DNA of 22,203 bases from Verrucomicrobiota bacterium (GCA_016198745.1 JACQHZ010000177.1:1-22203); one strand, 5' to 3'; numbered from the stretch's first letter, positions 234-20,154 are shown. Notes: generated by a model not told the origin, from the letters alone. Program-made: numbers and translations.

Positions 234-3200
234 ATGGCAGATCAAACCATGATGACGCGGCTGCCGTCTGCAAAACAAGTCAACACCGAGAAACTGGCTG
301 GGGATATTCTCCGCGCGACGCAAGGCGCGCGAACGGAAGAGGATGTCAAAATGCGTGTTGAGCCTTTGCTCCAGCAGGCATTCAGTGAAGCGGGGATTGA
401 TGTCAATCTGGCCGAGTATGAGAAGGCCACCACGGTTACCGCCAAACGGATGGATGCCGTGTACGGCTATGTCATCATTGAGTACAAAGCGCCCGGAAAG
501 TTGCGCGGCGACACGGCCATTCGAGATGCAAAGACCCAGCTTCAATGGTATTTGGAGGAGGAATCGCATCGCCACGGAATTCAGCGGGAAGCTTTCCTGG
601 AAAAAGCGGTGGGTGTGGCTTGTGATGGCGACAGTCTCATGTTTGTCCGCTATAGCCGGACCGCGAAGATATTGTCCCCGCCCATTCCGGTTGAGATCCA
701 GCAGGCGGATTTATTTCCAGAGGTTACGCCCCAACGCGGTTTTCAATCGCAAGGGCCATTCCCCATCACGGCCAACAGCATGGCCAGTTTGCTGATTTAT
801 GTCCGCTCGGCGGGACGGCGGCCCCTCACGGCCGAGGGCTTGGCCAAGGTGTTCAGCCCTGAACATGCAACCGTTCGTTTTCTCATCTCCGAGCTGTATT
901 CGGCGGCCATGCGCGGTCAACGCCGCAGCGCCCTGCCGCGGGTGGCGACATTTTATGAGGAGTGGGACCGAATTTTTGGCGTCGTCTATGGCGAGAAATT
1001 GGAGAAGGCCGAAAAAGCCGCCGAAGAAACCGCGCGACTCTATGGGCTCCCGTCCGGCATCCGGCTCAAGCCGCTTCTATTTGCCATCCATACGTTTTTC
1101 GCGTTTCTCATGAAGCTCATTGCGATTGAACTGATCGCGCTCCAGAAGAGATTGCAATTCAGTTCGTTTGTCGAGGGGTTGGCGGTCGAGGAGGATGATG
1201 CGCTCCGGAAGCGCCTGGATTTTCTCGAAAGCGGGGCGGACTTCTCCCGTCAAGGCATTGTGAACTTTTTGGAAGCCGATTTTTTCTCGTGGTACCTCGA
1301 CGCGTGGAACCATCGCCTGGCCAATGCCATCCGGAAAATCGTCCAAGCCCTGGCCGAATTTGAACCGGCTACGCCCATTTTGGAACCCGACTGGACCCGC
1401 GACTTGCTGCAAAAACTCTACGAACTGCTCGTTCCACGCGTCTTGCGGCATGGCTTGGGCGAGTATTATACGCCCGAATGGTTGGCCGGTTACCTGGTGG
1501 ACAAAACCGGCTATGACGGAGCGCCTGGCGTTCGCTTCCTTGATCCCGCCTGTGGTTCCGGCACTTTCCTCGTGCAAGCCATTCAGCGCGCCGTCAAGCA
1601 TGCGGAAACCCAATCCAAAGTTCGAATTGCGGAAGTGGGCCGGGCGATCCTGGACGGGATTATAGGATTCGACTTGAATCCCTTGGCCGTCCTGGCGGCG
1701 CGAACCAACTATCTCATCGCGTTTTCGCGTTTTCTTCCGTATATCCGGCCGATTTCACTTCCGGTTTATCTCTGTGATTCTGTTTTGCCGCCCGATCAAT
1801 ACTCCGAGCAACAGCAGACTTTTTTTGACAACACTGTTGTCTTTAAGACGCGGGCGCATGATTACGTCTTCCCGGTTTCCATGAAGAACAAGGGGATGAT
1901 TGACCAGTTCACCGGGTTGGTGATGACCGGGCTGCGTGGAAAACTGACTCCGATGCAATTTGAACGATCCTTGAGCGGCCAAATGCGCCTCGTGGCCGCC
2001 GATCAGACCCGGCTTCTGGAAATCTATCGAAAGATCAAGCAACTGGATGATGAAGGGCGGAACGGAATCTGGGCGCATTACATCAAGAACGCTTTTGCCC
2101 CGGTTTACGTCGGGCAGTTCGACTTTGTGGTTGGCAATCCGCCGTGGATTCGGTGGGGCTATCTTGCGGATGACTACCGCAAACAAACGTTGAAACTCTG
2201 GCATGACTACGGGCTTTTCTCGCTCAAGGGGCATCAAACCCACCTTGGGGCCGGTGAGAAGGATTTTTCCATGCTCTTCACGTATGCCTGCGCCGATCGC
2301 TATTTGAAGGAGCGCGGCACGATGGGCTTTGTCATCACCCAGGAGGTGTTCAAGTCCAAGGGGGCCGGCGAAGGGTTTCGACAGTTCCAACTCGGCGAGA
2401 AAGGCGCGCATCTCAAACTTCTCGGCATGGAGGACATGGTTCATCTGCAACCGTTCCAAGCGGCCAATAAGACCTGCATCTTTACCCTCAAGAAGGGGCA
2501 AGCCACTTCTTATCCGGTGCCGGTCGTTGAATGGAAACGAAAAACCGGCGTGAGCAAAATTCATCCGGAATGGAAACTGGAGGAAGTTTTGGAGAAAACC
2601 GAGCGGCGCAACGTCAAAGCGATTCCGGTTGATCCCCGCAAGAGCGTTTCCTCCTGGCAAACCGCCACGAGCACGGGGATCGCTTCAAGCGAAGTGTTAA
2701 AGGGTAAGAATCCTTACAAGGCGCGCCTGGGCGCTCGCGTGGAACCTTACGGCGTTTTTTGGCTGAATTTGAAGGCGGTCCGCCCGGATGGAATGATCGT
2801 GGTGGCGAATCAACATGATCGCGGCAAGCGCGACATCAACCCGGTAAGCGATTCCATTGAACCGGATCTCGTTTTCCCCGCCGTGAGCGGCGGTGATCTG
2901 GTGAAGTTCGGCATCAGGCGCCACTTTTATGTTCTTCTGTCCCAAAACCCCAAATCACGAAAAGGATATGAAGAAGATTGGATGGCTGAAAACCTGCCAC
3001 ATACCTATGCTTACCTGACACAATTCAAAGCCGTTTTAGTCAAACGCGCTGCCTACCAAAAATATTTCCATAAGGAAGTCAAAAAAAATGGAGTCGTTGT
3101 TCATCGTGAGGCCATCGCTCCGTTTTATTCCATGTATAATATCAGCACAGAATCCTTTGCGCGCCATCGCGTGGTTTGGAAGCGGATGGCCTCACGGATG

Positions 3201-3563
3201 GCAGCGGCGGTTCTGACCTCGTTGCGCACTCCTTTTGGAACAAAAACGGTCATTTCCACCGATACAACCTCCTTTATCACCGCGAAAAATGCGGAGGAGG
3301 CGCACTATCTTTGCGCCGTTCTCAATTCTGATGTGGTGGATGAATTTATCCGGAGTTTTTCATCCGGGGGGCGTGGGTTTGGCGCTCCCTCCGTTATGGA
3401 AAATATAGCGATTCCGCTTTTCGAGGCGAACAACCGGCTCCACAAGGGGCTTGCCGAACTCTCCCAAGAGGCTCACAAAGTGGTTGCACGCGCTGAAGAC
3501 ACGACGCCGATGGAAAAAGAAATCAACGCGGCTGTTCGAAAAATATGGAATATCGCCTCCTGA
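234..3563 (+). CDS. Type IIG/IIL single-polypeptide restriction-modification enzyme (MmeI-like): N-terminal PD-(D/E)xK endonuclease, gamma-class N6-adenine DNA methyltransferase, C-terminal target-recognition domain
   Basis: The track's M at 207 is a TTG codon, so I place the start at the first in-frame ATG (234); ATGs at 249/252 are alternatives. N-terminal motif MDAVYGYVIIEYK (D-x8-E-x-K, nt ~453-488) fits a PD-ExK nuclease core as in MmeI. MTase motif X-like LGEYYTPEWLAGYL; motif I VRFLDPACGSGTFLV (nt ~1539-1559); GFDLNPLAVLAARTN; motif IV FVVGNPPWIRWGY (nt ~2136-2147). A ~470-aa C-terminal region after NPPW is consistent with a TRD. Domain order nuclease-MTase-TRD in one ~1100-aa chain is the MmeI/Type IIG architecture. 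Confidence 0.72.
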   Translation: MADQTMMTRLPSAKQVNTEKLAGDILRATQGARTEEDVKMRVEPLLQQAFSEAGIDVNLAEYEKATTVTAKRMDAVYGYVIIEYKAPGKLRGDTAIRDAKTQLQWYLEEESHRHGIQREAFLEKAVGVACDGDSLMFVRYSRTAKILSPPIPVEIQQADLFPEVTPQRGFQSQGPFPITANSMASLLIYVRSAGRRPLTAEGLAKVFSPEHATVRFLISELYSAAMRGQRRSALPRVATFYEEWDRIFGVVYGEKLEKAEKAAEETARLYGLPSGIRLKPLLFAIHTFFAFLMKLIAIELIALQKRLQFSSFVEGLAVEEDDALRKRLDFLESGADFSRQGIVNFLEADFFSWYLDAWNHRLANAIRKIVQALAEFEPATPILEPDWTRDLLQKLYELLVPRVLRHGLGEYYTPEWLAGYLVDKTGYDGAPGVRFLDPACGSGTFLVQAIQRAVKHAETQSKVRIAEVGRAILDGIIGFDLNPLAVLAARTNYLIAFSRFLPYIRPISLPVYLCDSVLPPDQYSEQQQTFFDNTVVFKTRAHDYVFPVSMKNKGMIDQFTGLVMTGLRGKLTPMQFERSLSGQMRLVAADQTRLLEIYRKIKQLDDEGRNGIWAHYIKNAFAPVYVGQFDFVVGNPPWIRWGYLADDYRKQTLKLWHDYGLFSLKGHQTHLGAGEKDFSMLFTYACADRYLKERGTMGFVITQEVFKSKGAGEGFRQFQLGEKGAHLKLLGMEDMVHLQPFQAANKTCIFTLKKGQATSYPVPVVEWKRKTGVSKIHPEWKLEEVLEKTERRNVKAIPVDPRKSVSSWQTATSTGIASSEVLKGKNPYKARLGARVEPYGVFWLNLKAVRPDGMIVVANQHDRGKRDINPVSDSIEPDLVFPAVSGGDLVKFGIRRHFYVLLSQNPKSRKGYEEDWMAENLPHTYAYLTQFKAVLVKRAAYQKYFHKEVKKNGVVVHREAIAPFYSMYNISTESFARHRVVWKRMASRMAAAVLTSLRTPFGTKTVISTDTTSFITAKNAEEAHYLCAVLNSDVVDEFIRSFSSGGRGFGAPSVMENIAIPLFEANNRLHKGLAELSQEAHKVVARAEDTTPMEKEINAAVRKIWNIAS

Positions 3564-4414
3564 AACCTTCTGAGCCGGCTTATCCGAGGAAACTCCTGCA
3601 ACGCATGGGCAAGGAGGCGCCAACGCTTTATTATCATGGTCCGCTCAAGCTGCTCGACCGGTTCACCATGGCCGTGATTGCCGCCGACAGCATTCCGGCG
3701 CCCGCCATGCAGGCCACGAACGACCTGCTTTTCAAGATTCGTGAATACGCCCTGAATTACATCGGTCCCTGGCATTCGGTTTGGGAGACGGAAATCTTTC
3801 GGCTGGCGATTTACACTCCCAATGATCCGCAACGGCTTCGCTCCCTGACCATGCTTACCGCGCGGGGAATGGCGCGGGAGAATTGGGATGACTACCTGAA
3901 CGACCGATTTGGCTACAGCGGTCCCTTCAGAGGGTTCCCCGAAAAGGAGGAGTATTATCGCCGGGCGAAGGATGGGGAATTACTGGTTCTCTCCATCACC
4001 GAACCGGATGTGAAAAGGTTGTTGCGGGAAAACATCCTGTTGAGAAACTGGGTGGCGTGCGCGCTGGCCGACGTGGTTTTCGTGCCGTTTGCCGAGAAGG
4101 GGACGAAGACTTACATCACCTGCAAATTGGTTGTGAAGGCCGGCCTACCGGCCTTTACCTGCCAATACTATCCCGACCGGAATGAGGATCCCAACAAGCA
4201 ACTTTTTGAACTGGGAATTCCCTCGTACAATCGGAAAACGGTGGGGCCGTATCTGGATTCTCTGGGCGCAAGCACCGCCGGAGAAGCGCCGTTTCCGGAG
4301 GTTGAAATGCAATCCTTGATGGAGTCGTCGCCACAATATGGCGCGATTTCCAAATCTACCGGAAATAAAACACGCCAGGCCGAGTTGTGGGAGCGGAAGT
4401 CCATCAAGAAATGA
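3545..4414 (+). CDS. Divergent DprA/Smf-like Rossmann-fold (SLOG superfamily) domain protein, translationally coupled to the RM enzyme
   Basis: ATG at 3545 lies 19 bp inside the upstream RM ORF (stop 3561-3563). N-terminal segment EPAYPRKLL..APTLYYHGPLKLLDRFTMAVIAADS parallels the DprA pattern YP..L..I.DPP.VLY.KG.L.LL....VAIVGSR. C-terminal segment RNWVACALADVVFVPFAEKGTKTYITCKLVVKAGLPAFT parallels DprA RNRIIAGLS..VLVVEA...SGSLITA..A...GR.VFA.PG. The canonical glycine-rich loop (GSRxxSxYG) is replaced by AADSIPAPA, so it is probably not a canonical DprA. Confidence 0.6.
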   Translation: MEYRLLKPSEPAYPRKLLQRMGKEAPTLYYHGPLKLLDRFTMAVIAADSIPAPAMQATNDLLFKIREYALNYIGPWHSVWETEIFRLAIYTPNDPQRLRSLTMLTARGMARENWDDYLNDRFGYSGPFRGFPEKEEYYRRAKDGELLVLSITEPDVKRLLRENILLRNWVACALADVVFVPFAEKGTKTYITCKLVVKAGLPAFTCQYYPDRNEDPNKQLFELGIPSYNRKTVGPYLDSLGASTAGEAPFPEVEMQSLMESSPQYGAISKSTGNKTRQAELWERKSIKK

Positions 4415-4469
4415 AGCGCCATGCCAGGATGACGGGGGATTGTTGCGCGAAACCGAAGCATGCCATACG

Positions 4470-5102
4470 ATGAAAACCTATCTGCAACTTGCGCTTGATG
4501 TGGGAGAAAGCGCGGATTTGTTCGCGTTGGCGGACCGGGTGAAGGCGTGGGTGGACTGGATTGAACTCGGCACGCCGCTGATCAAGCGATACGGCATCGG
4601 CGTCGTCGCCCAGGCGCGAAATGCCTTTCCCAAACATCGCATCCTCGCCGACATGAAAACGACCGACGCTGCGAGGCTCGAAGCGGACATGGCGTTTGAA
4701 GCGGGCGCGGACATCTTCACCGTGCTCGCAGCCGCCTCCGACGCAACCGTCCGTGAGGCCGTGGAAGGCGCGCGGCACCACGGCAAGCAGGTGGTGGTTG
4801 ACCTCATCGGGCAACCCGATCCGATTGCGCGCGCGCAACAACTGATCGGCTTGAAGCCGGACTATTTCAATCTGCACCGCTCGACGGACGCCCGACGCGA
4901 CGGCGCGGAACTGCGTCTGGATTTGATTCGCGAATTCAAATCCCGAATTCCGGCGCCGCTTTCCGTGGCCGGCGGGATTGATCATCAAAACATCCGCGCC
5001 GTCCATGAGGCGGGCGCGGTCGTTGTGGTGGTGGGAAGCGCCATCACCTCGGCTAAGAATCCCGAACGAGTTGCGCGCGCAATGAAGGAGGCGATCCAAT
5101 GA
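4470..5102 (+). CDS. hxlA: 3-hexulose-6-phosphate synthase (HPS; OMP-decarboxylase/KGPDC fold), RuMP pathway
   Basis: From the ATG at 4470, MKTYLQLALDV... matches the HPS N-terminus. ADMKTTDA (Lys/Asp of the KGPDC family), VAGGI and a Gly-rich C-terminus are typical HPS features. The upstream extension of the raw ORF (4338-4469) overlaps the preceding gene and is probably untranslated. Confidence 0.8.
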   Translation: MKTYLQLALDVGESADLFALADRVKAWVDWIELGTPLIKRYGIGVVAQARNAFPKHRILADMKTTDAARLEADMAFEAGADIFTVLAAASDATVREAVEGARHHGKQVVVDLIGQPDPIARAQQLIGLKPDYFNLHRSTDARRDGAELRLDLIREFKSRIPAPLSVAGGIDHQNIRAVHEAGAVVVVVGSAITSAKNPERVARAMKEAIQ

Positions 5103-7269: not shown

Positions 7270-8448
7270 TTACTTTTTGGGCGACTCCTTCCCGCTCTTT
7301 TTATCGTCCTTCTTCTCGACCAGCAAATCCTTGCGTTCCTTCAGCAGCGAATCAATTGTCCATTTGGAAACGAGATATGTCCACGGCTCGCACTCCTTGT
7401 CGGTCTTGGCTTTCTCCTCAAGTTTTTGGAGCTTCTCCTTGAATTCCCTGTCCAACCGTTCCTTGTCTGCGGGTTTCTCATCCTTGCCGGGAACCCGAGT
7501 CTTGGAAAAATTGGCGTCCACCTTAACTTGAAGATGATAGGCATCGCTTATCACCTTGCCGATTTTTACCGTGTAGGAAAACCCGTCGAACGTTTTGATG
7601 GCAATCAGCGTGGGCATATTCAGACCGGCATCCTCGGGTTTGGTTTGAGGCGCAACCACGTCATTAAAACTGGGGGATGACAAGGCGCTGGCCGCGCTCG
7701 ATACCTTGGCTGAGTCGAGCGATGCATCCGACTTGGCCCCATCCAATTTCCAGTCGGCTGTCTCCGTATCGCGGGTCAATCTCCAGCATTTGGACGATTC
7801 CTTCGATGTGACCGCGATTTCCTTCGGGTTTTCCACTTTGAAAAAGGTCTTGTCGAGCCACGATTCCGACTTGGGTTCAACCTCGGAGAAAAGTTCGGAA
7901 ACCAGCGCCACATCCTTCGACTCGCCCAATGTCAAAACATAACGACTGTCAGGATAACCGCCACTTCCTCCAAATGGGCTGCTCTCGCTCATCTGCCGCA
8001 TGTGTTTTTTCCCGAGCACCAGCGACTTTATCATTTTTCCACTCGCGTTACGCAACTCCACCAGGGTGCCTGAACTGGGAGCGGTCTTGTCATCGGGAGA
8101 AACCAGTTCCAAACGTTTGTATTGGGAACTCCCCACCGCCATCCATTGAACGGCCTTAAGTTCCCAAAGTTTGCGGAGAAAGTCACTGATCTGCGTGAAA
8201 TTCGCCGGATAATCATACCGCTCGCGAACACGCCAAACGCCATCCTTTTTGACCAAGTTCAACCCGCCACTGGATTGAGCGATGCGGACTTGCTCGATGT
8301 CATTGATGGGAAAATCCGCCAGCACCTTCAGCCGGGATCCCGCTGCGGACGATTTCCAAGAACTCCGGCCGGATTTCAAGACAAAGAAACTTATGCCGAC
8401 CACAATTATCGCGACGATGAGAAGAAGATTTAATTGTTTTTGATTCAT
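7270..8448 (-). CDS. DUF4340-domain protein (accessory to GldG-type ABC transport systems), N-terminal signal/TM anchor
   Basis: Start MNQKQLNLLLIVAIIVVGISFFVL (hydrophobic anchor) corresponds to the ATG complement at 8446-8448; the longer raw ORF to 8556 is an upstream extension. Position directly downstream of the GldG-like gene and the beta-rich, Lys/Glu-rich C-terminal tail are typical of DUF4340 partners of GldG. Confidence 0.65.
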   Translation of the reverse strand: MNQKQLNLLLIVAIIVVGISFFVLKSGRSSWKSSAAGSRLKVLADFPINDIEQVRIAQSSGGLNLVKKDGVWRVRERYDYPANFTQISDFLRKLWELKAVQWMAVGSSQYKRLELVSPDDKTAPSSGTLVELRNASGKMIKSLVLGKKHMRQMSESSPFGGSGGYPDSRYVLTLGESKDVALVSELFSEVEPKSESWLDKTFFKVENPKEIAVTSKESSKCWRLTRDTETADWKLDGAKSDASLDSAKVSSAASALSSPSFNDVVAPQTKPEDAGLNMPTLIAIKTFDGFSYTVKIGKVISDAYHLQVKVDANFSKTRVPGKDEKPADKERLDREFKEKLQKLEEKAKTDKECEPWTYLVSKWTIDSLLKERKDLLVEKKDDKKSGKESPKK

Positions 8449-8500
8449 GGCAGTGAGTCTTTGCAAGTGGTTGCGAATGCCCCAGGAGCACGGTTCCTCG

Positions 8501-10351
8501 TCACTTTGTCTTCTTCCGTTTATAGTTGGCCAGCGCCAAACCCAGCACCACCACACACAGGGGCATAACGGTGATGTTCAGCCATTTCAGACGGTTCTCC
8601 AGGGAATCTATATCGCGGCGCAAATCCTTGCGCACCTGTTTAAGCTCAAGCTTGACCTGGGTTTCCTGCTGGCGAAACCGTGTGATCTCCGCCTGCTGTT
8701 CAGGGGAGAGAATGAAACGCTGCCCTTGCTGCTTGTTCTTCTCCAATTCACCGAGGCGCTGACGCGTGGTCGAGAGGCTTTCCTCAAGTTCTTTGATTTT
8801 CGTCCGGTAATTGGCTTCCGCCATCGCTTGCATTTGCTTAACCACGATGAAAGGACGGTTCATTGTTGCGCGACTGCGGACTCCGATCAGATTGTTATCT
8901 CCTGCCATCTGTTCGACCAGGCTTTGGGCAAAACTCAAGTTGCCATTCAAGGGCTGAAGGATTTTCTGTCCAAAAATGTTGTGAACCTGCACACAGAGCG
9001 GGTCGAACAATAGGTCGCTGTCACCAACCAGGACCACGGTGGCAGGCGCGGCGGATTCCTTGACTGCCGGCTTGGTTTTGTCACCGGGATTGCCCTCTGG
9101 GAAAGCGGTGTTGAACTTTCCGGTCAATCGCAAAGCGAGGGTGTATTCTTTGCCCGAAGAAACAAAGTCGCGAATCGTTCGCTCGGAGCTCATCTCGGCC
9201 ATCATGGCAGCGACGAGTTGGGATTCCGTTGTCGTTTTCAACAGAACGGTTTGCTTGAGTCCCTTCATGGGTGTTCCCGTGAACACACCGGCGAAAGCCA
9301 ATAGCACATTGTCCACCTGGCTTGTCACAACATCGTCGGTGTTGATGCTTTTGGATGTCAGCGAGAGGACGCTGGGAACCGTCTCTGTCCCTCCACCCCG
9401 GTTAAGCTGGGTCACCAGATTCATGTCAGCGACCACCTTCTGAGGGTCAAATTCAATTCCCCATGCCTTCAGAAGTTTGCCGAGTGTTGCCCCGCTCCCC
9501 GGCGGACGCTGAAATGGGGCGCTCTTCTCCGCAATCGGGAGAGGATCCAGGAAGGCAATCAGCTTGCCGCCGCGCAGGATGAATTGGTCAAGAGCAAACT
9601 GGGTTTTCTCGGAAATATCCTTTGGACAGATCGCCACCAATACTTTGATGCTCTCGTCAATCTGTTCCACCGTTGGCTCCACCTGCCTGACGTCGAAATC
9701 ATTCTTGAGCTCGTTGATAAAAGTCCACGGCGCTTGGGATCGTGGCTGCTGTCCCGGCGGCATATAATTCATGTTCATGGATACGCCGAAGACAGGCAGG
9801 CTGCTCATGACACCGATGATGGGTTTTTCGGGACGAACTGCGCGTGAGATGGCTCGGGAAATTTCGTATTCGAGAAGCCGCTCGCGTTCCGGCGCGAGAA
9901 AGGGGATGGCCACCTTGGCGTCCAGGCAGGTGACGGAAAGCCCCAAGTAAATCCGATCTTCCATGTTGACCGACTGCCCATCAACTCCATCGAGACGGGC
10001 TGAATCCTCGGCGTCGGAATCCGGTTGTGGATCGAGCTTCTCGACTTCAATCATGCCCTTGCCAGCCTGGCGGTATTCGGCCAGCAGGTCCTCGACACGC
10101 TGGGCATAATTTTTCAAAAAGACCGGCAGGGCATTGCCTGCCCGGCTGCAATAAAAGCGGAGCTTGATCGGAGTATCGAGTTTGGCCAATATCGCCCGCG
10201 TTCCTGGTGAAAGGGTGTAAAGTTTTTCGGAGGTGAGGTCAACCCGTGCTTTGGCTAAGCTGGCGATCACGTTGACGGCAATGACAATGACCAGCATCAC
10301 CGCCACGCCGGTCAGCGAGTAGAAAAGCATTTCAAGTTGTTTTTTCTTCAT
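8501..10351 (-). CDS. GldG-like ABC-transporter auxiliary component (ABC_transp_aux family), N- and C-terminal TM helices
   Basis: 616 aa. N-terminal TM MLFYSLTGVAVMLVIVIAVNVIA, C-terminal TM ITVMPLCVVVLGLALA after a coiled coil, large periplasmic middle. The architecture and neighbourhood (ABC ATPase + ABC-2 permease upstream, DUF4340 downstream) match the GldA/F/G-type cluster. Confidence 0.7.
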   Translation of the reverse strand: MKKKQLEMLFYSLTGVAVMLVIVIAVNVIASLAKARVDLTSEKLYTLSPGTRAILAKLDTPIKLRFYCSRAGNALPVFLKNYAQRVEDLLAEYRQAGKGMIEVEKLDPQPDSDAEDSARLDGVDGQSVNMEDRIYLGLSVTCLDAKVAIPFLAPERERLLEYEISRAISRAVRPEKPIIGVMSSLPVFGVSMNMNYMPPGQQPRSQAPWTFINELKNDFDVRQVEPTVEQIDESIKVLVAICPKDISEKTQFALDQFILRGGKLIAFLDPLPIAEKSAPFQRPPGSGATLGKLLKAWGIEFDPQKVVADMNLVTQLNRGGGTETVPSVLSLTSKSINTDDVVTSQVDNVLLAFAGVFTGTPMKGLKQTVLLKTTTESQLVAAMMAEMSSERTIRDFVSSGKEYTLALRLTGKFNTAFPEGNPGDKTKPAVKESAAPATVVLVGDSDLLFDPLCVQVHNIFGQKILQPLNGNLSFAQSLVEQMAGDNNLIGVRSRATMNRPFIVVKQMQAMAEANYRTKIKELEESLSTTRQRLGELEKNKQQGQRFILSPEQQAEITRFRQQETQVKLELKQVRKDLRRDIDSLENRLKWLNITVMPLCVVVLGLALANYKRKKTK

Positions 10352-10369
10352 AGTCTAAAAGGATGGAAT

Positions 10370-11131
10370 TCAACCGGCCCGTCGCGATCGAATAATGACA
10401 CCCGTTGTGAAGAGTCCAAAGCTGGCGATGGACAGGAAGAAGAGGATGTCTCTTGTATCCAGTACGCCGCGCTGGAACCCTTCAAAATGGGTCATCACAC
10501 TACAGGCGGCAACGGTATCAACCAACCAGGTGGACCCGGATAGCAGTCGCGTCAGAAAATCCGTGACCGGGGGCCAGCCGGCGAGAATCAGGAACAAACA
10601 GATCACCACGGACAAAATGAAACTGATGACTTGGTTGCGGGTAATCGCCGATGTCATTGAACTCACTCCCAAGTAGGAACCTCCCAGGAGCAGACTGCCC
10701 ACATAGCCGCTGAGGATCACTCCATTGTCGGGGCGCCCCAGATAGTTTACGGTGAGGATGAGAGGAAACGTCAATATTAAGGTCAGCGCCAAAAACAACC
10801 ACGCCGCCAGGAACTTGGCGACGATGGCCTGCCATGCCGTTACCGGCATTGTCAGCAGGAGTTCGATGGTCCCCATGCGTTTTTCTTCCGCCCAGAGGCG
10901 CATTCCCAGCGCAGGCAGGAAGAAAAGGTAAAGCCACGGGTGCCAAATGAAAAAGGAAGTCAGCGAGGCCTCACCGCGTTCAAAGAATCCCCCCACCATG
11001 AACGTGAAGAATCCGACGAGCAGAAGAAAAATCACAATGAACACATACGCCACCGGCGACGCAAAATAACCCGCCAGTTCCCGTTTGATTATCGTGCGGA
11101 TGGGTCCCCAACTGGAAGTGATGGTCTTCAT
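10370..11131 (-). CDS. ABC-2 family transporter permease (GldF-like), ~6 TM segments
   Basis: 253 aa, highly hydrophobic with multiple predicted TM helices. 4-bp overlap with the upstream ATPase gene (11128-11131). Confidence 0.75.
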   Translation of the reverse strand: MKTITSSWGPIRTIIKRELAGYFASPVAYVFIVIFLLLVGFFTFMVGGFFERGEASLTSFFIWHPWLYLFFLPALGMRLWAEEKRMGTIELLLTMPVTAWQAIVAKFLAAWLFLALTLILTFPLILTVNYLGRPDNGVILSGYVGSLLLGGSYLGVSSMTSAITRNQVISFILSVVICLFLILAGWPPVTDFLTRLLSGSTWLVDTVAACSVMTHFEGFQRGVLDTRDILFFLSIASFGLFTTGVIIRSRRAG

Positions 11132-12093
11132 GATGATTTCTCCGTTGCGGTTTCAGACAAGGTAATGCTGCGGAACACGTCGTCGAGGCGGCCTTCTTCA
11201 CAGCGCAGTTCCTCGATTTTCCATTGTTCGCGGGTTGCGAGTTCATATATGCCGAGACCCAACTCTCCCTCCTTGCCGTTCGGTTTTGGAAACACCCGCA
11301 CGCTCGCGACCGGCGCAGGCGCTTCAAGGATTGTTGTTTTGGCGACCAGCGGTAATTGGGTCAGCTTCGTGTTGGCCACTGCGGTGGAAACGCCGGTCAG
11401 TCGCACCGTGATGGCCCCAGCGGTTTCCGAGCGGTTCTTCAACTCCTGTGGTGTCCCGTTGGCCACAATGCGCCCGCGATCAATGATGATGGCGCGGGAA
11501 CAGACGGCCTCGACTTCTTCCAGAATGTGGGTTGAAAAAATGATCGCCTTTTCCTCGCCCATTCGACGGATCAATGCGCGAATCTCATGTTTCTGATTGG
11601 GATCAAGGCCGTCGGTGGGTTCGTCCATGATAAGAATGTCCGGATCATGGATGATTGCCTGGGCGAAGCAGGTCCGGTGGCGGAACCCCTTGGAGAGTGT
11701 CTCGATGCTTTGGTGAAGGACCGTTTTAAGCGAGCACATCTCGACCACACGGTCCACCGCCTGCTGTGTGCGGTTGCCGCGCATACCCCGCAATTCGGCT
11801 GCAAATTGGAGGAACTCGGAGACGGTCATATCGGTGTAGGCGGGGGCATTCTCGGGCAGATAACCAATCATGCGCTTGCAAATGATCGGTTTTTCCGCCA
11901 TATCCTCGCCGCCGATGGTGACGGACCCCGAAGAGGGGGGGATAAAACCGGTGATCATTCGCATGGTGGTGGATTTGCCTGCCCCGTTTGGCCCAAGGAA
12001 CCCAAGAATCTCACCCCGCTCGACGGAAAACGACAGGCCATTCACCGCCGCGATTGGGCCAAAGGATTTACAGAGATTTTGAACTTTTATCAT
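11128..12093 (-). CDS. ABC transporter ATP-binding protein (GldA-like) with C-terminal extension
   Basis: Walker A GPNGAGKST, Q-loop, signature LSKGFRHR (LSGGQ variant), Walker B ILIMDEPTDGLD, H-loop STHILEE. ~90-aa C-terminal extension typical of GldA-type ATPases. Confidence 0.85.
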   Translation of the reverse strand: MIKVQNLCKSFGPIAAVNGLSFSVERGEILGFLGPNGAGKSTTMRMITGFIPPSSGSVTIGGEDMAEKPIICKRMIGYLPENAPAYTDMTVSEFLQFAAELRGMRGNRTQQAVDRVVEMCSLKTVLHQSIETLSKGFRHRTCFAQAIIHDPDILIMDEPTDGLDPNQKHEIRALIRRMGEEKAIIFSTHILEEVEAVCSRAIIIDRGRIVANGTPQELKNRSETAGAITVRLTGVSTAVANTKLTQLPLVAKTTILEAPAPVASVRVFPKPNGKEGELGLGIYELATREQWKIEELRCEEGRLDDVFRSITLSETATEKSS

Positions 12094-12147: not shown

Positions 12148-15100
12148 TCAGGATGATGGACGGCGGCGGGATGGCTTGGATGCCTGCCCCTTGAGTTGAT
12201 TGAGGAGTTCCTGATAATTTCGCAGCATGAGGTCAACTTCGGCGCGGAGTTGCTGCAGTTGCGTCGTGGTGAGGCGGTCGGTGGCGAGGCTGTTCTCCAT
12301 CCACGCCTGCATGACCTGGAACTGGCGCTGAATGATGTTGGTGAAAACTTCCGGCACGCTGTAACGCACCTCGATCTGGTAGCCGGGTGGTCCGCTTTCG
12401 CCGGGAGCTTGCATCGGCGGTTCGGAAGGGGCAGGCGCAATGTCCGCGGACACGGAGGCCGGCTCCGTCGCAGCGGGGGGGTGATGGGGCAGGGCGGAGG
12501 CGACTGCCGGCGTCGCCGTGGAGGCCGGTTGTTGCCGCCAATCGTCCAAAAACTTGCGAACCACATCGAGCGTGTCAGTGGAGATGGAGGTTTCGATCTG
12601 CCGCGGCCCGGTCGCCGATTGCATTTGCTCCACGGTCGTTCGCGTCTGCCGCGCCAATCCTTCGGTCACGCTGTTTTTGATCGCCTCCAGCCCCTCGCGA
12701 AACGCGGCAAGTTGAACAACCACCTTGCCCACCGGATCGCCGGGGTCGGCCTCGGCAAAGAGCTGCTTCCGTTTGTAGGTGGACGTGATCTCGGTCCATC
12801 GTTCTTTTTCCTTTTCCGTCTGCGCGCCAAACATTTCCTTGAACTTGAGCAGGTTCGCTTCGGCGCCGGTGGCGAGGGTCTGCGCCTCGTTCTTGTAGTG
12901 ATCGTCAAGCAGATTGCGAATCTCCTCCTCGTTCATGATGGGGACGACCTTTTCCGCCAGACGATTCATGTTGCGGTAGGACCCTTGCAGCTTGAACGCG
13001 GGCTCCGTCCGGTAGGCATCGGCCTGGGCCGCGGAACGGATGTATTCCTGGTTGACCCGCAAGACCACGTCGCGGATTCGCAACAGGGATTTCATCACCG
13101 CCACCATCTCGCCGACCTCCTCTGGCGAATAGCTGCCCTCGAACTCGATTCCCTCGGCGGAACCCGTTTCCGCATAGCGAACGATCGCGAATACATCCTT
13201 CTGATTCTTGACGCTGAGCCGCTGAAGATAGGGATTCGAGGTGATCGCGTTTTCCAGGCAGCTCATTCGGAAGACAGCCTCCTGGTTGCCGATGATATCG
13301 CCGAGGTTGTAGGTGTCGGCGCGGTTGGCCAGCATGTCCGGAATCTTGAACTTCTCGCCGCTCTCGGTGTAGGGGTTGCCGGCCATCACCACCGCCACCT
13401 TTCGTCCCCGCAAATCGTAGGTGCGCGGCGCGCCCTGATAAACGCCTTCGATCCGGCGCTGGGCGTCGCAAAGGGAGATGAATTTCTGCAGAAACTCCGG
13501 GTTGCAATGTTGGATGTCGTCCAGGCAGATCATGACGTTGTCGCCCATTTCCAGCGCCAGGTTGAGCTTGGCCACCTCCTCGCGAGCGGTGGCATTGGGC
13601 GCCTCGGCGGGATCGAGCGAAGTCACGTTGTGGCCGAGGGCGGGGCCGTTGATTTTCATGAAGACAAGCCCCAAGCGATTGGCCACGTACTCGACCAGGG
13701 TGGTCTTGCCATAGCCCGGCGGCGAAATCAACAGAAGCAGCCCCATGCGATCGGTGCGCTTGTCGGCGCCCGCCACGCCGATCTGCTTGGCCAGGTTGGC
13801 GCCGATGAGCGGCAGGTAGGATTGGTCAATCAATTGGTTGCGCACAAACGTCGTGAGCACGCGCGCCTTGAAATCGTTCAAGCGCAACGCCTCGCGTTTT
13901 CGGTCCATGAGACTCTTCTTGATCCCGCTGTAACGTTCGAAAGCGGCGGCACGCTCGCGAATGAACCGCCGCAGCTTCGCGATGAAGGCATGGTAATGGA
14001 AGGCGTAGGCACGGTCCTTCAGCGCCGCGTGATTGCCCATAAAATCGGCGAGCTTGGCCTTGACGCTCACCTCGACCACCTGGGAAGGGTCGAAGGCGTT
14101 GTAAAACAACAGGGCGGCCGCCTCCTCCACGAACTCCGGATCGTGTCCGCCGTTCCGGGAAACAAAAGCGCCCAACCAGTCCATGATCACGTCAAAGCCG
14201 GCCAAACGGTCGCCCTTCACCGAATCGCGCGCGTTCTCGAAGGGACCCTGAAACAATTTTATTCGCAAATGATCGTCGAAATCCTTCAGGATCGTCGCCG
14301 CCTCCTGGCTGATGACAAACCGCTCCCGGCTGACGAATTCATGGAACAGGTATTCGGCTGCGTCGTCCACGATCTCGGCGGAAAACAACCTGCTCCGTTG
14401 GACAAAGCCGCCCACGAGTTCCCGTAACTCGGCCAGGTACGCCTCCTGTCTTTCACCACCCGGAAAAAGCCCGCTCAACGCGCCGAGGCTCTTGAGCTTG
14501 GCCTGGATCACCTCCCGACGGGCGGCATCCGGGCATTCGTTCCAAGCCAGGCGGGCGCAAGCGCGCGCGCGTGGGTGATAGCGCAGCAACCCGATTGCCG
14601 CATGCGTCCCCGCCAGCGCCCGCAGGATTGCCGCCGCATCCGGATCGTGAACCCCCTTGACATAACCTTCGGCATAACGCGACGCCATGAATGCGCGAAC
14701 CAATTCGACCCGCTGCTCGTCGGTCATCTTCATGATCTCCGTGAGCGGCTTGCTCCGTCCGGCGAGGCTTTCCTGGAACAGCACGTAGGCCAGGTATTCC
14801 GATCGGTAAACCTCGCGGTCCTCGGAAACAACCTCCTGATCCCATACGGCGCGGGTGGCAAGAAAATCCGGCTCCTGGATTTTCTCGAAATAGTTGGTGC
14901 CGGCCAGGTGATAAAACATCTCGCCGTCGCGCGGGACGACGGTGAGGTCCAGCGGCTGGGTGTTGACCGAAAATTTGTGCGGACCGAACTGGATGATGCT
15001 CTTGCCGTCCACGAACAATTCGAGGCGGTCCTTGAGCTGCTGGACGGCGCTTTCGCGGATGCTCTTGAGACGGTTCTGGATTTCGTCCGCCTTGACCGTG

Positions 15101-17544
15101 TCCTCCAGTTCCACGAGCTGCGCCACGATCTCCCGGACCTTTTCCACCATCAGGTCCGAGGCGAAATAGCTGTTGATCTCGTTGAGATTGTTGAACGCCT
15201 CGGCGCGATTTTTTACGCCGTTCAGGATGCGGTCGGCGGTGGCCAGAAAAACGCCGGCCCGTTTGTTGCGCGCCTCCACGAGCTGCAGTTTTTTCGCGGA
15301 CAGCGCGTTGTAAATCTCCTCGCGCTTGGCTGCGAGCTTCTGAAGGTGCTCCTCGAAATCGGCGAAGCGCCCCTCGATTTCCTCGATCTGCACCATCAGT
15401 TTGGTCAGGCACTCATCGCATTTCTTCGCGGTGTCGCACAAATCGAGATAATTGGCCGCCGCCTGGTCGAGCAGTTTGACCTGCGCGCCGAACTGGGCTT
15501 CCCCTTCCACGCCAAGCAGTTCTTTTTTCCGCGTCTTGAGCGATGCCTTGGCCTGGTTGAGCGTGGCGTAGATGGCGGAAATGTTTTCGATGATGCGCGT
15601 GGTTTCGGTGGAATCTTCGATCTTGAGGTTGCCGACGATCTCCACCAGCATCTCCAATTCTTTGGAACAGGCGGCGAGTTCCTCCTCCAGCCTGGCGGCC
15701 TCGGTCACTTTCTTGAGATGCTCGACCGCGCCGCGCTGTTTCCCGACCCTCTGCTGGTAGGGTTGGAGCGCCTCCGGTTTCAGCAGGAACTCGACGCACA
15801 GCTTCGAAAGCCGATCCAGGTGTTCGGCCGCCTCCTTTTCGAGACCGTCCACCGCCGGCGCGTCAATGTAGCGCAACTCCTTCAGCGAGATGATCTCGCC
15901 CCGCACCGCGCGCAGGGCAGTCAGACATCCCACGAAGGCATCGATGGATTTGAGGTTGGTGTAATCGATTCCCCCGATCAGGTCCGCCGTCTTCTGTTTG
16001 ACGCGGCCGAGTTCCCCCGCCGTGTTGCGGCGGATGTTGGCGACCTTTTCGAACTCGTCAATGGCGGCGGTCGCCGCATTTTTGATCTCGACCAGGGCTT
16101 CCCGAAGATTGAATGCGTTGGAATCCCCCAACCAAAAATAGGCGTCCGTGATGTCGGTGGCCTTCTTGACAAGGTCCACGTAGAGGTCGCCGTAAGTGTC
16201 CTGCTTGGCGATCAGGTTCAACAACTCGTTGCACTCGGCCATGCAGGTGACGATGGGCGCATTGCCGATCTTGAACAGGAAGGAGTCCTTTTTGGCCGAG
16301 GGCGGGGCATTCCGGCTGAGGAACGGCGTCCGCCAGATCTGCAGCGAATGATGGCGGCGCGCCTCTTCGTTGCACTTGAAGCAGATCAACTCGCCGCCCG
16401 CGAACAGGGAATACCCGTTGCAGATGATCGGCGTCTCCGTGCCGCGCTCGATCCGGTTGTACGTCAGCAGGATGTAAACCCCGGTGGACACATTGAAGAA
16501 GACGTAGATGAAATCCTCGCCGTTGGGCGCTTCGTGTCGGGTGTAAAACCGCATGTCGGCCAGGCCGGTCTCGAAGAGCTTGAATTCGCCGGTCTGAAGG
16601 CAATAGCCATTTTGAAAGATGATGCCCTGCTCATCCGGCAGTCGGACGCACGAATCTCCGATCTGATCGATGCGCTTGACCTCGTTCGTCTTTCCATTGA
16701 AAACCAGATAGCGGTATTTTTGCTCCTCGAACGGACGTATTTTCAGCAGGATCAAATTGCCGACGGTCGCAAAGTATATCTCCGCGTCATCCAGCGTCTG
16801 GTCCTTGTTCTCGACCGGCTCCGAGTAGATGCCGTGGCCGGAGGCGGTGTTGTCCTCCACCTTGATGGTCAGATTGCCGTCCAGCGTATCGACAAACACG
16901 CGGTCCTCGATGGAGACGTGCGGGTGCCGCCCCGGACGATGAAGATCACGCGTCGCCCGGTTCCACTCAAACTCCTGCTGCGGCGGAAAACCGGTTTCAT
17001 GATCGAAGCGGTTGCCAAGGTAGTTCACCCCCTTGTCGTCAAGCCGCCATTTGAATGCCTTGATGTCCGAGGCGCTCTTTCCGATTTGAAACACCATGTA
17101 AAAATGAGGCTCGCCCCAGTGGAACCGGCTGAAAACCGTTTCCTTGTAGTAACGGTACAGCTCCTTGAAATCCATTTGGAACGCCTCTGCGTTCAGAATG
17201 TCCAGCGGCAGTTCGTGGAACGCGTGTTCCCGGTATTCGTAAATGCCGAAGACGTCCTCGACTTTGGTCTCCGACCGCAAGCCCATGCTGACATTGTAAC
17301 CGAAGATGAACCGGTTCTTGTTCGCCGGGATCATGTCCCGCGGCACGCAGTTGTTCTTCGTGGCCACGTGTTCGGTGGCCAAAAGCTCGAACTCGATGGC
17401 GCCAAAGACCTCCTTGCGCGCGGCGTTGAGCTGATCGAGGCGCCCGCGCAGTTCCTTGCCTTGCGCGAGCAGGCGATTGCGAAGGATCTCGTACGTCCCG
17501 CTCTCCAGGACGACGTTTGGTGTGACTGCCTTATCTTCGGGCAT
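12148..17544 (-). CDS. Giant (1798 aa) multidomain protein of unknown function with one embedded AAA+ ATPase module of AAA_5/MoxR-McrB type (residues ~1265-1420; nt ~13285-13752)
   Basis: Uninterrupted 5.4-kb ORF. Walker A LLLISPPGYGKTTL (nt ~13699-13740 on the - strand), Walker B VMICLDDIQ, sensor-1-like KVAVVMAGNP followed by IPDMLANRAD (arginine-finger region), then a helical lid. N-terminal ~1260 aa: predicted beta-rich region (~res 200-400), long coiled-coil/helical regions (~res 480-850), additional helical domains. C-terminus: Pro/Ala/Thr/Ser-rich linker (res ~1670-1722) plus a short helical tail. No family I can name with confidence. Confidence 0.6.
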   Translation of the reverse strand: MPEDKAVTPNVVLESGTYEILRNRLLAQGKELRGRLDQLNAARKEVFGAIEFELLATEHVATKNNCVPRDMIPANKNRFIFGYNVSMGLRSETKVEDVFGIYEYREHAFHELPLDILNAEAFQMDFKELYRYYKETVFSRFHWGEPHFYMVFQIGKSASDIKAFKWRLDDKGVNYLGNRFDHETGFPPQQEFEWNRATRDLHRPGRHPHVSIEDRVFVDTLDGNLTIKVEDNTASGHGIYSEPVENKDQTLDDAEIYFATVGNLILLKIRPFEEQKYRYLVFNGKTNEVKRIDQIGDSCVRLPDEQGIIFQNGYCLQTGEFKLFETGLADMRFYTRHEAPNGEDFIYVFFNVSTGVYILLTYNRIERGTETPIICNGYSLFAGGELICFKCNEEARRHHSLQIWRTPFLSRNAPPSAKKDSFLFKIGNAPIVTCMAECNELLNLIAKQDTYGDLYVDLVKKATDITDAYFWLGDSNAFNLREALVEIKNAATAAIDEFEKVANIRRNTAGELGRVKQKTADLIGGIDYTNLKSIDAFVGCLTALRAVRGEIISLKELRYIDAPAVDGLEKEAAEHLDRLSKLCVEFLLKPEALQPYQQRVGKQRGAVEHLKKVTEAARLEEELAACSKELEMLVEIVGNLKIEDSTETTRIIENISAIYATLNQAKASLKTRKKELLGVEGEAQFGAQVKLLDQAAANYLDLCDTAKKCDECLTKLMVQIEEIEGRFADFEEHLQKLAAKREEIYNALSAKKLQLVEARNKRAGVFLATADRILNGVKNRAEAFNNLNEINSYFASDLMVEKVREIVAQLVELEDTVKADEIQNRLKSIRESAVQQLKDRLELFVDGKSIIQFGPHKFSVNTQPLDLTVVPRDGEMFYHLAGTNYFEKIQEPDFLATRAVWDQEVVSEDREVYRSEYLAYVLFQESLAGRSKPLTEIMKMTDEQRVELVRAFMASRYAEGYVKGVHDPDAAAILRALAGTHAAIGLLRYHPRARACARLAWNECPDAARREVIQAKLKSLGALSGLFPGGERQEAYLAELRELVGGFVQRSRLFSAEIVDDAAEYLFHEFVSRERFVISQEAATILKDFDDHLRIKLFQGPFENARDSVKGDRLAGFDVIMDWLGAFVSRNGGHDPEFVEEAAALLFYNAFDPSQVVEVSVKAKLADFMGNHAALKDRAYAFHYHAFIAKLRRFIRERAAAFERYSGIKKSLMDRKREALRLNDFKARVLTTFVRNQLIDQSYLPLIGANLAKQIGVAGADKRTDRMGLLLLISPPGYGKTTLVEYVANRLGLVFMKINGPALGHNVTSLDPAEAPNATAREEVAKLNLALEMGDNVMICLDDIQHCNPEFLQKFISLCDAQRRIEGVYQGAPRTYDLRGRKVAVVMAGNPYTESGEKFKIPDMLANRADTYNLGDIIGNQEAVFRMSCLENAITSNPYLQRLSVKNQKDVFAIVRYAETGSAEGIEFEGSYSPEEVGEMVAVMKSLLRIRDVVLRVNQEYIRSAAQADAYRTEPAFKLQGSYRNMNRLAEKVVPIMNEEEIRNLLDDHYKNEAQTLATGAEANLLKFKEMFGAQTEKEKERWTEITSTYKRKQLFAEADPGDPVGKVVVQLAAFREGLEAIKNSVTEGLARQTRTTVEQMQSATGPRQIETSISTDTLDVVRKFLDDWRQQPASTATPAVASALPHHPPAATEPASVSADIAPAPSEPPMQAPGESGPPGYQIEVRYSVPEVFTNIIQRQFQVMQAWMENSLATDRLTTTQLQQLRAEVDLMLRNYQELLNQLKGQASKPSRRRPSS

Positions 17545-19970: not shown

Positions 19971-20154
19971 GGTGACTCCTTTGAGATGGGTGGGTCCTTC
20001 TTTCCCGCGTGTATCACGAAACGCAGGAAGCACATGCACTTTGACGAACGCGCAAGGGAAAGACAACCACGAAACGACTCCAAAAACGCCTTGCAAATGG
20101 AAACGAAACGCGTCAAGTTGCGCGCAAGGCTCGCTGATCAGCAGCCCGTCCCTC
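19971..20154. promoter_or_regulatory. Divergent intergenic region between the flotillin (-) and Sel1-repeat (+) genes carrying short direct repeats (CACGAAACG x2-3; CGCGCAAGG x2)
   Basis: cacgaaacgc (~20014), cacgaaacga (~20068), aaacgaaacgcg (~20101); gcgcaaggg (~20050) and gcgcaaggc (~20122). No confident -35/-10 call. Confidence 0.35.

Follow-up and report, generated by a model that had tools for sequence, protein, structure and literature searches.

We analysed a 22,203-bp contig from a Verrucomicrobia metagenome-assembled genome (the window, by which we mean this stretch at its full length) in which two genes overlap: a long gene encoding a restriction-modification (RM) enzyme and, 3′ of it, a shorter gene encoding a DprA-like protein (locus tag HY360_08775; hereafter the partner). 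Together they are a two-gene Type IIG RM system, and their features are collected in Table 1. All of the evidence presented here is computational and comes from uncultured genomes. A previous, sequence-only reading of this DNA had placed the stop codon of the enzyme gene 19 bp within the open reading frame (ORF) of the partner, and its coordinates proved exact.

Table 1. Features of the Type IIG enzyme gene and its DprA-like partner gene, in window coordinates (nt, nucleotides; aa, amino acids; ssDNA, single-stranded DNA; pLDDT, predicted local distance difference test; pI, isoelectric point).
Feature	Position	Strand	Remarks
Type IIG restriction-modification gene	234..3563	+	ATG 234, TGA 3561-3563, 1109 aa
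PD-(D/E)xK nuclease motif D74-X8-E83-Y-K85	453..488	+	D74, E83 and K85 invariant in 20 homologues
Methyltransferase motif I DPACGSGTF, residues 437-445, S-adenosylmethionine (AdoMet) binding	1542..1568	+	Invariant in both homologue alignments
Methyltransferase motif IV NPPW, residues 635-638, catalytic	2136..2147	+	Invariant in both homologue alignments
TaqI_C-like target-recognition region, residues 971-1044	3144..3365	+	Pfam PF12950, E=9.5e-5, below cut-off
DprA-like partner gene	3545..4414	+	ATG 3545, +1 frame, 289 aa
19-nt dual-coding overlap	3545..3563	+	Final codons and stop of the enzyme; ATG and opening codons of the partner
DprA-clade SLOG Rossmann domain, residues 1-250	3545..4294	+	
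A46-A47-D48 at the position of the DprA ssDNA motif 'G-S/T/A-R'	3680..3688	+	D48 invariant; aligns with Arg52 of Helicobacter pylori DprA (HpDprA)
Family-specific insert, residues 113-131, 'NWDDYLNDRFGYSGPFRGF'	3881..3937	+	Short DprA-like relatives lack it (gap in hhalign)
I164-L-L-R167-N168 at the position of the DprA motif 'F/L/Y-x-x-R-N/D'	4034..4048	+	N168 invariant, I164 and R167 nearly so
Disordered, mostly basic C-terminal tail, residues 251-289	4295..4411	+	pLDDT 45-59; family median pI 9.7
Q278-A-E-L-W282, candidate beta-clamp-binding motif	4376..4390	+	Q278 invariant in a 20-sequence alignment

The enzyme matches the PADLOC model REase_MTase_IIG (PDLC03630) over its full length (E=1e-262, residues 22-1104), as well as the Pfam families N6_Mtase and Eco57I, with TaqI_C falling below its cut-off; its homologues are 58-71% identical. 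The invariance of its nuclease and methyltransferase motifs was judged from two alignments, of 16 and 20 homologues. One polypeptide carries nuclease, adenine-methyltransferase and recognition modules, the hallmark of Type IIG enzymes, and the proposal that the first gene encodes a single-chain Type IIG protein is borne out by the full-length match and the invariant motifs. It had also been called MmeI-like. This holds for its architecture and motifs (those of MmeI are VD70-X9-E80MK82, FFDPACGCGNFL and GNPPF; PMC2582602) but not for family membership: of the MmeI-specific Pfam models (MmeI_N, MmeI_hel, MmeI_Mtase, MmeI_TRD and MmeI_C) only MmeI_Mtase was hit, with 24.2 bits against a 27-bit cut-off, and a search of the Protein Data Bank returned no sequence match to MmeI. 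Judged by these comparisons, the large gene encodes a Type IIG enzyme of MmeI-like architecture that is not a member of the MmeI family. The AlphaFold model of the enzyme is poor (pLDDT 62.6; predicted template modelling score, pTM, 0.46), and the fold matches of this low-confidence model (PglX, M.BseCI, CamA, DrdV and MmeI) would place the protein in a broad methyltransferase group only, as a coarse indication of superfamily. Met7 (nt 252) is invariant among homologues and may be the true start.

For the partner, the sequence-only reading had recognized a DprA signature at both ends of a Rossmann domain. The characteristic strings are indeed present, but the curated profiles stay below their cut-offs: Pfam PF02481 scores 25.0 bits (cut-off 29.6) over residues 3-68 only, TIGR00732 scores 25.2 bits (cut-off 191), and the PADLOC model PsyrA gives a weak, partial match (residues 5-61, E=9e-7), while the PADLOC model ShosA gives none. 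Homology to DprA is recovered through profiles only. Using hhalign, the partner family aligns with a clade of short (~200-aa) DprA-like proteins (E=7e-42), and the profile of this clade aligns in turn with the complete Rossmann domain of Streptococcus pneumoniae DprA (E=2.7e-13). An alignment-based AlphaFold model of the partner (pLDDT 86, pTM 0.82) has the extended Rossmann fold of DprA, and its best Foldseek matches are to DprA (E=6e-11), the first 14 all being DprA or ShosA. Because the fold and the profile-profile links agree, the partner is a DprA-clade SLOG protein, with the superfamily fold found in LOG, MoCo-carrier, YpsA and ThsA-SLOG. It has neither a SAM nor a winged-helix domain, and it lacks the LOG motif P-G-G-x-G-T-x-x-E (PF03641; motif as given in PMC3950713), the corresponding stretch reading A-E-K-G-T-K-T-Y. 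The family comprises 365 matches of ~277 aa and 52-78% identity, and its hosts include Verrucomicrobiota, Kiritimatiellia, Planctomycetota, Myxococcota and Gammaproteobacteria, among others.

The association of both genes was followed in two directions. Two partner homologues, one in a deltaproteobacterial metagenome-assembled genome (P0054) and one on a JGI metagenome contig (P0085), have a Type IIG gene of 1092-1094 aa directly upstream with the identical 19-nt overlap, and one of these two loci (L003) lies in a defence island beside SIR2-HerA. Scanning outward from the partner, with one genome per species, yielded 41 loci, all from uncultured genomes and spread over about ten phylum-level lineages. 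In 37 of these 41 genome loci the enzyme was found immediately upstream (tblastn, 47-70% identity), its match ending 10-16 nt past the start of the partner. Scanning outward from the enzyme, with an alignment of it against metagenomes, yielded 80 relatives. All six metagenome enzymes of at least 56% identity for which downstream sequence was available are followed by the partner, and about 70 enzymes at 34-47% identity have neither a partner nor any DprA-like ORF within 3 kb (tblastn and family hidden Markov model). Full-length plasmid relatives, at ~29% identity, are solitary genes annotated as 'N-6 DNA methylase'. No third conserved gene emerged when the flanking ORFs of 48 partner-clade loci were clustered, which gave only shadow ORFs and a lineage-specific rubrerythrin. 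The partner is hence a defining character of one clade of the enzyme family. The sequence-only reading would have been refuted if homologues of the two genes never lay together in other genomes; this two-way census found both the pairing and the overlap conserved.

The junction itself is strongly constrained. Among 43 related loci, from genomes and metagenomes, the overlap measures 19 nt in 38 and 16 nt in 5, and the start codon of the partner, ATG in 33 loci and GTG in 10, sits within a conserved C-terminus of the enzyme ('...LWNI(K/S)x*'). Chance does not account for the overlap. In only 20 of the 43 loci is the start codon preceded by a Shine-Dalgarno-like core. Taken together, the overlap, the start codons and the sparse Shine-Dalgarno cores are consistent with translation of the partner depending, at least partly, on translation of the enzyme gene, and we infer that both are translationally coupled.

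The target-recognition region of the enzyme is also unusually stable. Over residues 721-1060 (nt ~2394-3413), column conservation is 0.69, as compared with 0.65-0.77 elsewhere in the enzyme, so that across phyla its conservation comes close to that of the catalytic domains (0.69 versus 0.77). This suggests that one recognition sequence may be common to the whole partner-bearing clade, which would be unexpected if specificities had diversified as they have in the MmeI family.

Loss of the two genes is asymmetric. The enzyme gene is interrupted or frameshifted next to an intact partner in L002, L019, L033, L036 and L045 (numbers with L denote loci). In L035, which shares its rubrerythrin synteny with loci carrying the complete pair, only the terminal 12 codons of the enzyme gene remain ('..KSLWNIKF*') and the partner is intact. 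Solo partners are also found in L024, after an ORF6N gene, and in L031, after a Schlafen/AlbA_2 gene and then a ResIII helicase gene. The reverse, an intact enzyme of this clade whose partner is missing or broken, was not seen in ~28 full-length loci and 6 metagenome loci. This pattern is suggestive of a protective component and recalls that of RM systems in general, in which orphan methyltransferases occur and solitary nucleases are not known.

Two of these loci deserve a brief description. L002 (5699-8019) and L001 (4735-8019) come from closely related genomes and encode an identical partner; in L002 the middle of the enzyme is replaced by small genes (an AAA_14 gene and a 64-aa ORF), with the N- and C-terminal fragments still in place. 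In L031 (2002-8934), the upstream Schlafen gene carries AlbA_2 and HATPase_c_4 domains, the ResIII helicase has 832 aa, and a 673-aa radical-SAM gene resembling spore photoproduct lyase lies downstream. L031 may represent another defence or repair context for the partner family.

The short DprA-like relatives of the partner, which share the motifs IGGF(H/Q)SPxExE and RNRxVAALAD, also keep company with Type IIG genes. In L130 (6001-11698), a DprA-like gene is followed by a IIG enzyme (PDLC03630) 33% identical to that of the window and then by an AriA/OLD-like AAA_15 ATPase. In L139 (2475-3476) and L140 (493-2253), a small HTH_3 gene and a DprA-like gene precede a IIG enzyme 50% identical to that of L130 and likewise of the PADLOC family of the window enzyme. 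The DprA-like genes of these three loci encode 202-222 aa, and L130 on the one hand and L139 and L140 on the other look like separate three-gene variants. The clade also meets a different enzyme model: L137 (1-6651) carries a PLD-SNF2 helicase, a IIG gene (PDLC03628), a DUF3800 gene and then a DprA-like gene, and on the IMG/VR contigs L134 (114-6624) and L135 the IIG enzyme is immediately followed by a DprA-like gene, in L134 with a 4-nt overlap and an SNF2 helicase gene upstream. Finally, fusion proteins of ~690-760 aa (P0199, P0181, P0205, P0209 and P0216) join a PDLC03628-type methyltransferase-like module, covering model positions ~466-757, to a C-terminal DprA-like domain. Their motif IV is degenerate ('GFDVVLGD', with NPP[YFW] lost), and the module is probably catalytically dead. 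The fusions were considered as proof of a role in methylation, an argument weakened by this missing catalytic motif. The clade thus adjoins, or is fused to, at least two other IIG families, and the variety of gene orders and enzyme families, together with the fusions, argues for a direct functional, and probably physical, link between DprA-like proteins and IIG-type methyltransferase modules.

Some further arrangements were recorded among these relatives. L133, L134, L135 and L137 each carry a cluster that combines a PDLC03628 Type IIG gene with a DprA-like gene, three of the four being on IMG/VR 'viral' contigs; the parts list of these clusters is similar to that of DISARM, and as far as could be told they correspond to no described system. 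The fusion gene of P0199 (L046, 8001-10280) stands alone, with a RecQ-like helicase two genes away. Other subclades of the enzyme family, at 34-35% identity, have different conserved neighbours (L115 6409-9219, L121 4491-7181, L126 6310-9009 and the flanks of L112, L113 and L119): one set has a ~900-aa SNF2/ResIII/RapA_C helicase downstream, and another a pair of proteins without Pfam match, ~555 aa upstream and ~467 aa downstream.

The sequence of the partner departs from DprA where DprA contacts DNA. Two signature ssDNA-binding motifs have been defined on the structure of HpDprA bound to ssDNA (PMC3950713). At the first, G-S/T/A-R (Gly50-Arg52 in HpDprA), the partner family has (C/A)-(S/A)-D, and in HpDprA the substitution R52E lowers ssDNA affinity ~315-fold (PMC3950713). 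Given that an invariant Asp occupies the position of Arg52, canonical DprA-style ssDNA binding should not be assumed for the partner. The second motif aligns with F-L-A-R-N of HpDprA (Phe140-Asn144; PMC3950713), R-N being kept and Ile standing for F/L/Y. The globular domain is only mildly basic (family median pI 7.7). The family-specific insert has seven invariant residues (D120, R121, G123, G126, P127, F128 and F131) and is, speculatively, a candidate contact surface.

The C-terminal tail carries the second distinctive feature. The pattern Q-x-x-[LFM]-[LFW] occurs within the last 45 residues of 111 of 120 family members, against 4.0 +/- 2.0 (maximum 12) in shuffled tails, and in 1 of 107 distant DprA-like relatives. 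Its consensus is (R/K)-x-(R/K)-Q-(A/T/L/M/I)-(S/T)-L-(L/F), with examples such as QMSLL, QLSLL, QISFL and QGKLF; divergent members have QISLF, QLKLF, QLELF, QLPLW or QLKLGL. The beta-clamp-binding peptide of Escherichia coli MutS is QMSLL. More generally, the bacterial consensus is QL(S/D)LF, usually at the C-terminus and tolerant of variation (PMC9690074), and in the partner family a peptide of this kind lies in an accessible, disordered segment (tail pLDDT <60). A clamp-binding motif would be the best reading of this peptide. The solo partners retain it (QQLSF in L024 and L031, QGKFNF in L035), which points to a target in the host and not to the enzyme, and makes an enzyme-docking peptide less likely. 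A C-terminal degron is also less likely: the motif is the extreme C-terminus in 53 members, and it is internal in 58 of the 111 that bear it. The loss of the ssDNA-binding arginine and the clamp-like tail both escaped the sequence-only reading, which had thought of a controller of the balance between restriction and modification, a sensor of ssDNA or nicks, or a nucleotide-binding regulator; both features change the likely mechanism.

What might such a partner do? IIG enzymes that modify one strand leave one daughter duplex unmodified after replication, for which the answer of Eco57I is a second methyltransferase; how MmeI avoids self-cutting has been described as an open question (PMC2582602). 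No second methyltransferase was found beside the enzyme of the window. A precedent for a DprA acting on RM enzymes, invoked by the sequence-only reading, is real: HpDprA binds methyltransferases and stimulates methylation, and blocks restriction enzymes through physical interaction (PMC3597690). On the strength of the obligate pairing, the asymmetric loss, the clamp-like tail motif, the HpDprA precedent, the one-strand modification problem with its missing second methyltransferase and the recurrence of DprA-like genes beside other Type IIG genes, we favour, with a probability of about 0.4, the reading in which the partner is an accessory subunit that protects the host: bound to the sliding clamp, it would tip the balance from cleavage to methylation wherever host DNA has just been replicated. 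It would be a protective subunit and not a competence DprA. Its Rossmann domain would contact the enzyme, the DNA or both, and its disordered tail would dock on the beta sliding clamps left on newly replicated DNA. Docking would gather the enzyme behind the fork and there incline it to methylate and restrain it from cutting, comparable to what HpDprA does in vitro to methyltransferases and restriction enzymes that are separate proteins, so that transiently unmodified host sites would be methylated before being cut, and unreplicated invading DNA would meet free, cleavage-competent enzyme. Expression from overlapping frames would tie the supply of the partner to that of the enzyme.

Several observations weigh against this protective role. 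Sister clades and plasmid relatives of the enzyme family manage without a partner. The one-strand modification by the enzyme is assumed, and contact between partner and enzyme, an effect on the balance of methylation and restriction, and clamp docking are all putative. With an invariant Asp at the key arginine position, the biochemistry of DprA does not simply carry over. The tail motif spans only five residues and is degenerate, sequence is a difficult basis for recognizing clamp motifs (PMC9690074), and the copy in the window, RQAELW (nt 4373-4390), is a weak variant of the clamp consensus. At the C-termini of the partner-less sister-clade enzymes, a clamp-like motif was found in 1 of ~65, a scarcity that speaks neither for nor against the clamp idea. 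Finally, the enzyme gene is a fourfold larger mutational target than the partner gene and its frameshifts in metagenome assemblies may be assembly errors, which is why the loss asymmetry is only suggestive.

Two other roles explain part of the same data, although we consider both unlikely. In the first, the partner would be a repair or antitoxin-like protein similar to ShosA, binding damaged DNA or ssDNA at forks and promoting recombinational repair without regulating the enzyme. It would thereby limit the harm from breaks or nicks that the enzyme inflicts on its own host, as the antitoxin half of a defence module of toxin-antitoxin type. A DprA-like antitoxin with ssDNA-binding activity, ShosA offsets the toxicity of its partner, in a system described as acting through DNA damage and repair (PMC11961720); the weak PsyrA match of the window partner points the same way, many repair proteins carry clamp motifs (PMC9690074), and the fact that the enzyme is lost and the partner is never lost alone fits equally well. 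Such a role sits poorly, however, with the invariant Asp that replaces the ssDNA-binding arginine, a position at which the equivalent R52E costs ~315-fold in affinity, and with the only mildly basic globular domain. Nor does the partner have a SAM or winged-helix domain, and toxins of the ShosT or PsyrT type are absent.

In the second, the partner would be an activator or targeting subunit, through which a clamp or replication intermediate brings the nuclease to replicating foreign DNA or licenses cleavage there, so that defence would be raised and the host not shielded. The same clamp-like motif would serve this purpose, and a setting in defence islands (for example beside SIR2-HerA in L003) and the effector- or motor-like accessories of other enzyme subclades (SNF2/ResIII helicase, AriA-like ATPase) are in keeping with it. 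Yet loss of an activator should be harmless, and partner loss was never seen with an intact enzyme; solo partners, moreover, persist after enzyme loss. Host forks bear clamps too, so that targeting to forks would be dangerous without discrimination.

It is very improbable that the partner is a SLOG regulator sensing a small molecule, with a pocket binding a nucleotide- or cofactor-like ligand that switches the enzyme allosterically, as in Thoeris ThsA. Invariant acidic and aromatic residues at strand ends (D48, W76, E81, E83 and K188), and the retention of the base-pocket residues R167-N168 where the gating Arg is lost, would suit a ligand pocket, but no signal-generating enzyme is conserved nearby and the LOG motif PGGxGTxxE is absent. 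An ordinary competence DprA or an unrelated gene overlapping by chance was rejected on the two-way census: public records do label some members 'DprA/Smf involved in DNA uptake', but about ten phyla share the pair and its overlap, the partner scores 25 bits where the DprA equivalog demands 191, DprA motif 1 is missing, and the distribution of the partner follows one enzyme clade exactly.

The protective, clamp-docking subunit that we favour has parallels, none of them complete, among known systems. With MmeI-type (IIG/IIL) enzymes, that of the window shares an N-terminal PD-ExK nuclease, a gamma-class N6-adenine methyltransferase (DPACGxG, NPP[FW]), a C-terminal TaqI-like region and a length of ~1000-1100 aa; MmeI, however, works as one protein without partner (PMC2582602), whereas the clade of the window always comes with a DprA-like gene. 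The claim that Type IIG enzymes act alone, made in the sequence-only reading, is only partly true, given that Eco57I requires a companion methyltransferase (PMC2582602). The likeness to Eco57I would extend, beyond the Pfam match, to a separately encoded second protein with a protective role, a role inferred in our case; here, though, the companion is a DprA-like Rossmann protein without AdoMet motifs and not a methyltransferase. HpDprA is a housekeeping competence protein with the G-T-R52 ssDNA motif, unlinked to any particular RM system, while the partner is tied by its genetics to a single enzyme, carries Asp where HpDprA has R52 and adds an insert and a clamp-like tail. In ShosTA and PsyrTA, the toxic partner is a phosphoribosyltransferase (ShosT) and not an RM enzyme, and ShosA has an N-terminal SAM domain that is absent here. 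Related by methyltransferase fold, as the best Foldseek matches of the low-confidence enzyme model indicate, is PglX of BREX, a methyltransferase relying on accessory proteins. BREX, however, comprises six genes, a nuclease domain is missing from PglX, and the NCBIfam PglX models score the enzyme of the window far under their cut-offs.

As for the tail, we found no report of a clamp motif used by an RM or defence system in the literature searched. A functional analogy is offered by DNMT1, which has a role in replication-coupled maintenance methylation. DNMT1 is listed among PCNA-interacting proteins, and the partner resembles clamp-tethered proteins, bacterial (MutS, MutL, SocB) and eukaryotic (Dnmt1-PCNA), in its short Q-based hydrophobic peptide within a disordered terminus (PMC9690074). 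PADLOC, Pfam and NCBIfam contain no model for the partner family or the pair. The sequence-only reading did not recognize the pairing as a described system, and our search agrees: nowhere in the full-text literature searched is a Type IIG enzyme described with a DprA-like partner (the SLOG survey of Burroughs et al. 2015 lies outside it and might mention such contexts). The pair would accordingly represent a Type IIG system whose accessory subunit has not been described before.

The surroundings of the pair were also inspected. Only 233 nt separate the enzyme gene from the 5′ end of the contig. Downstream of the partner follow the ribulose-monophosphate genes hxlA and hxlB. The longest ORF for 3-hexulose-6-phosphate synthase (4338-5102) begins within the partner gene, and the hxlA family model aligns from residue 46-49 onward only; the real start is probably ATG 4471, 56 nt past the partner stop, in which case the two genes do not overlap. 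On the minus strand, an operon for a GldA/GldF/GldG-like ATP-binding cassette transporter with a DUF4340 gene (7270-12093) provides an ordinary housekeeping context, and implies that the pair is embedded in chromosomal rather than mobile surroundings. No partner homologue was found among 72,556 plasmids or in IMG/VR and no tRNA was found in the window, and carriage by a mobile element was rejected. A scan for promoters and terminators stayed at background level. Further along the minus strand lies a gene for a 1798-aa protein (12148-17544) with DUF3686 ('ATPase involved in DNA repair'), DUF7902 and an AAA+ domain, which weakly matches the PADLOC model LmuB (E=1e-7). Directly upstream on the same strand, a gene encodes a 758-aa protein without family match (17880-20156), and a 158-aa ORF overlaps its 3′ end. 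The 1798-aa and 758-aa proteins may form a pair, as yet uncharacterised, for DNA maintenance or defence.

MmeI-type Type IIG enzymes are regarded as minimal, self-sufficient RM systems. A conserved, apparently obligate, non-enzymatic partner with a candidate clamp peptide provides a testable molecular handle on the question of self-cutting, and brings RM into the emerging picture in which a DprA-like protein forms the protective half of a defence module (ShosA, PsyrA). In practical terms, cloning or using enzymes of this clade without their partner may fail or prove toxic. The DprA-like clade is furthermore a marker for Type IIG-associated systems that the libraries of current defence finders do not model. 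A more specific version of the idea, which we put forward as doubtful, is a replisome-coupled system in which a DprA-derived adaptor places the Type IIG enzyme on fresh DNA by means of its beta-clamp peptide and switches it toward methylation. If this were true, the system would correspond, in bacteria, to the maintenance methylation that Dnmt1 carries out under guidance by PCNA and would give a general answer to how one-strand modifiers spare the unmodified daughter chromosome, and the wider GGF(H/Q)SPxExE clade would serve Type IIG-like defence enzymes as their dedicated accessory family.

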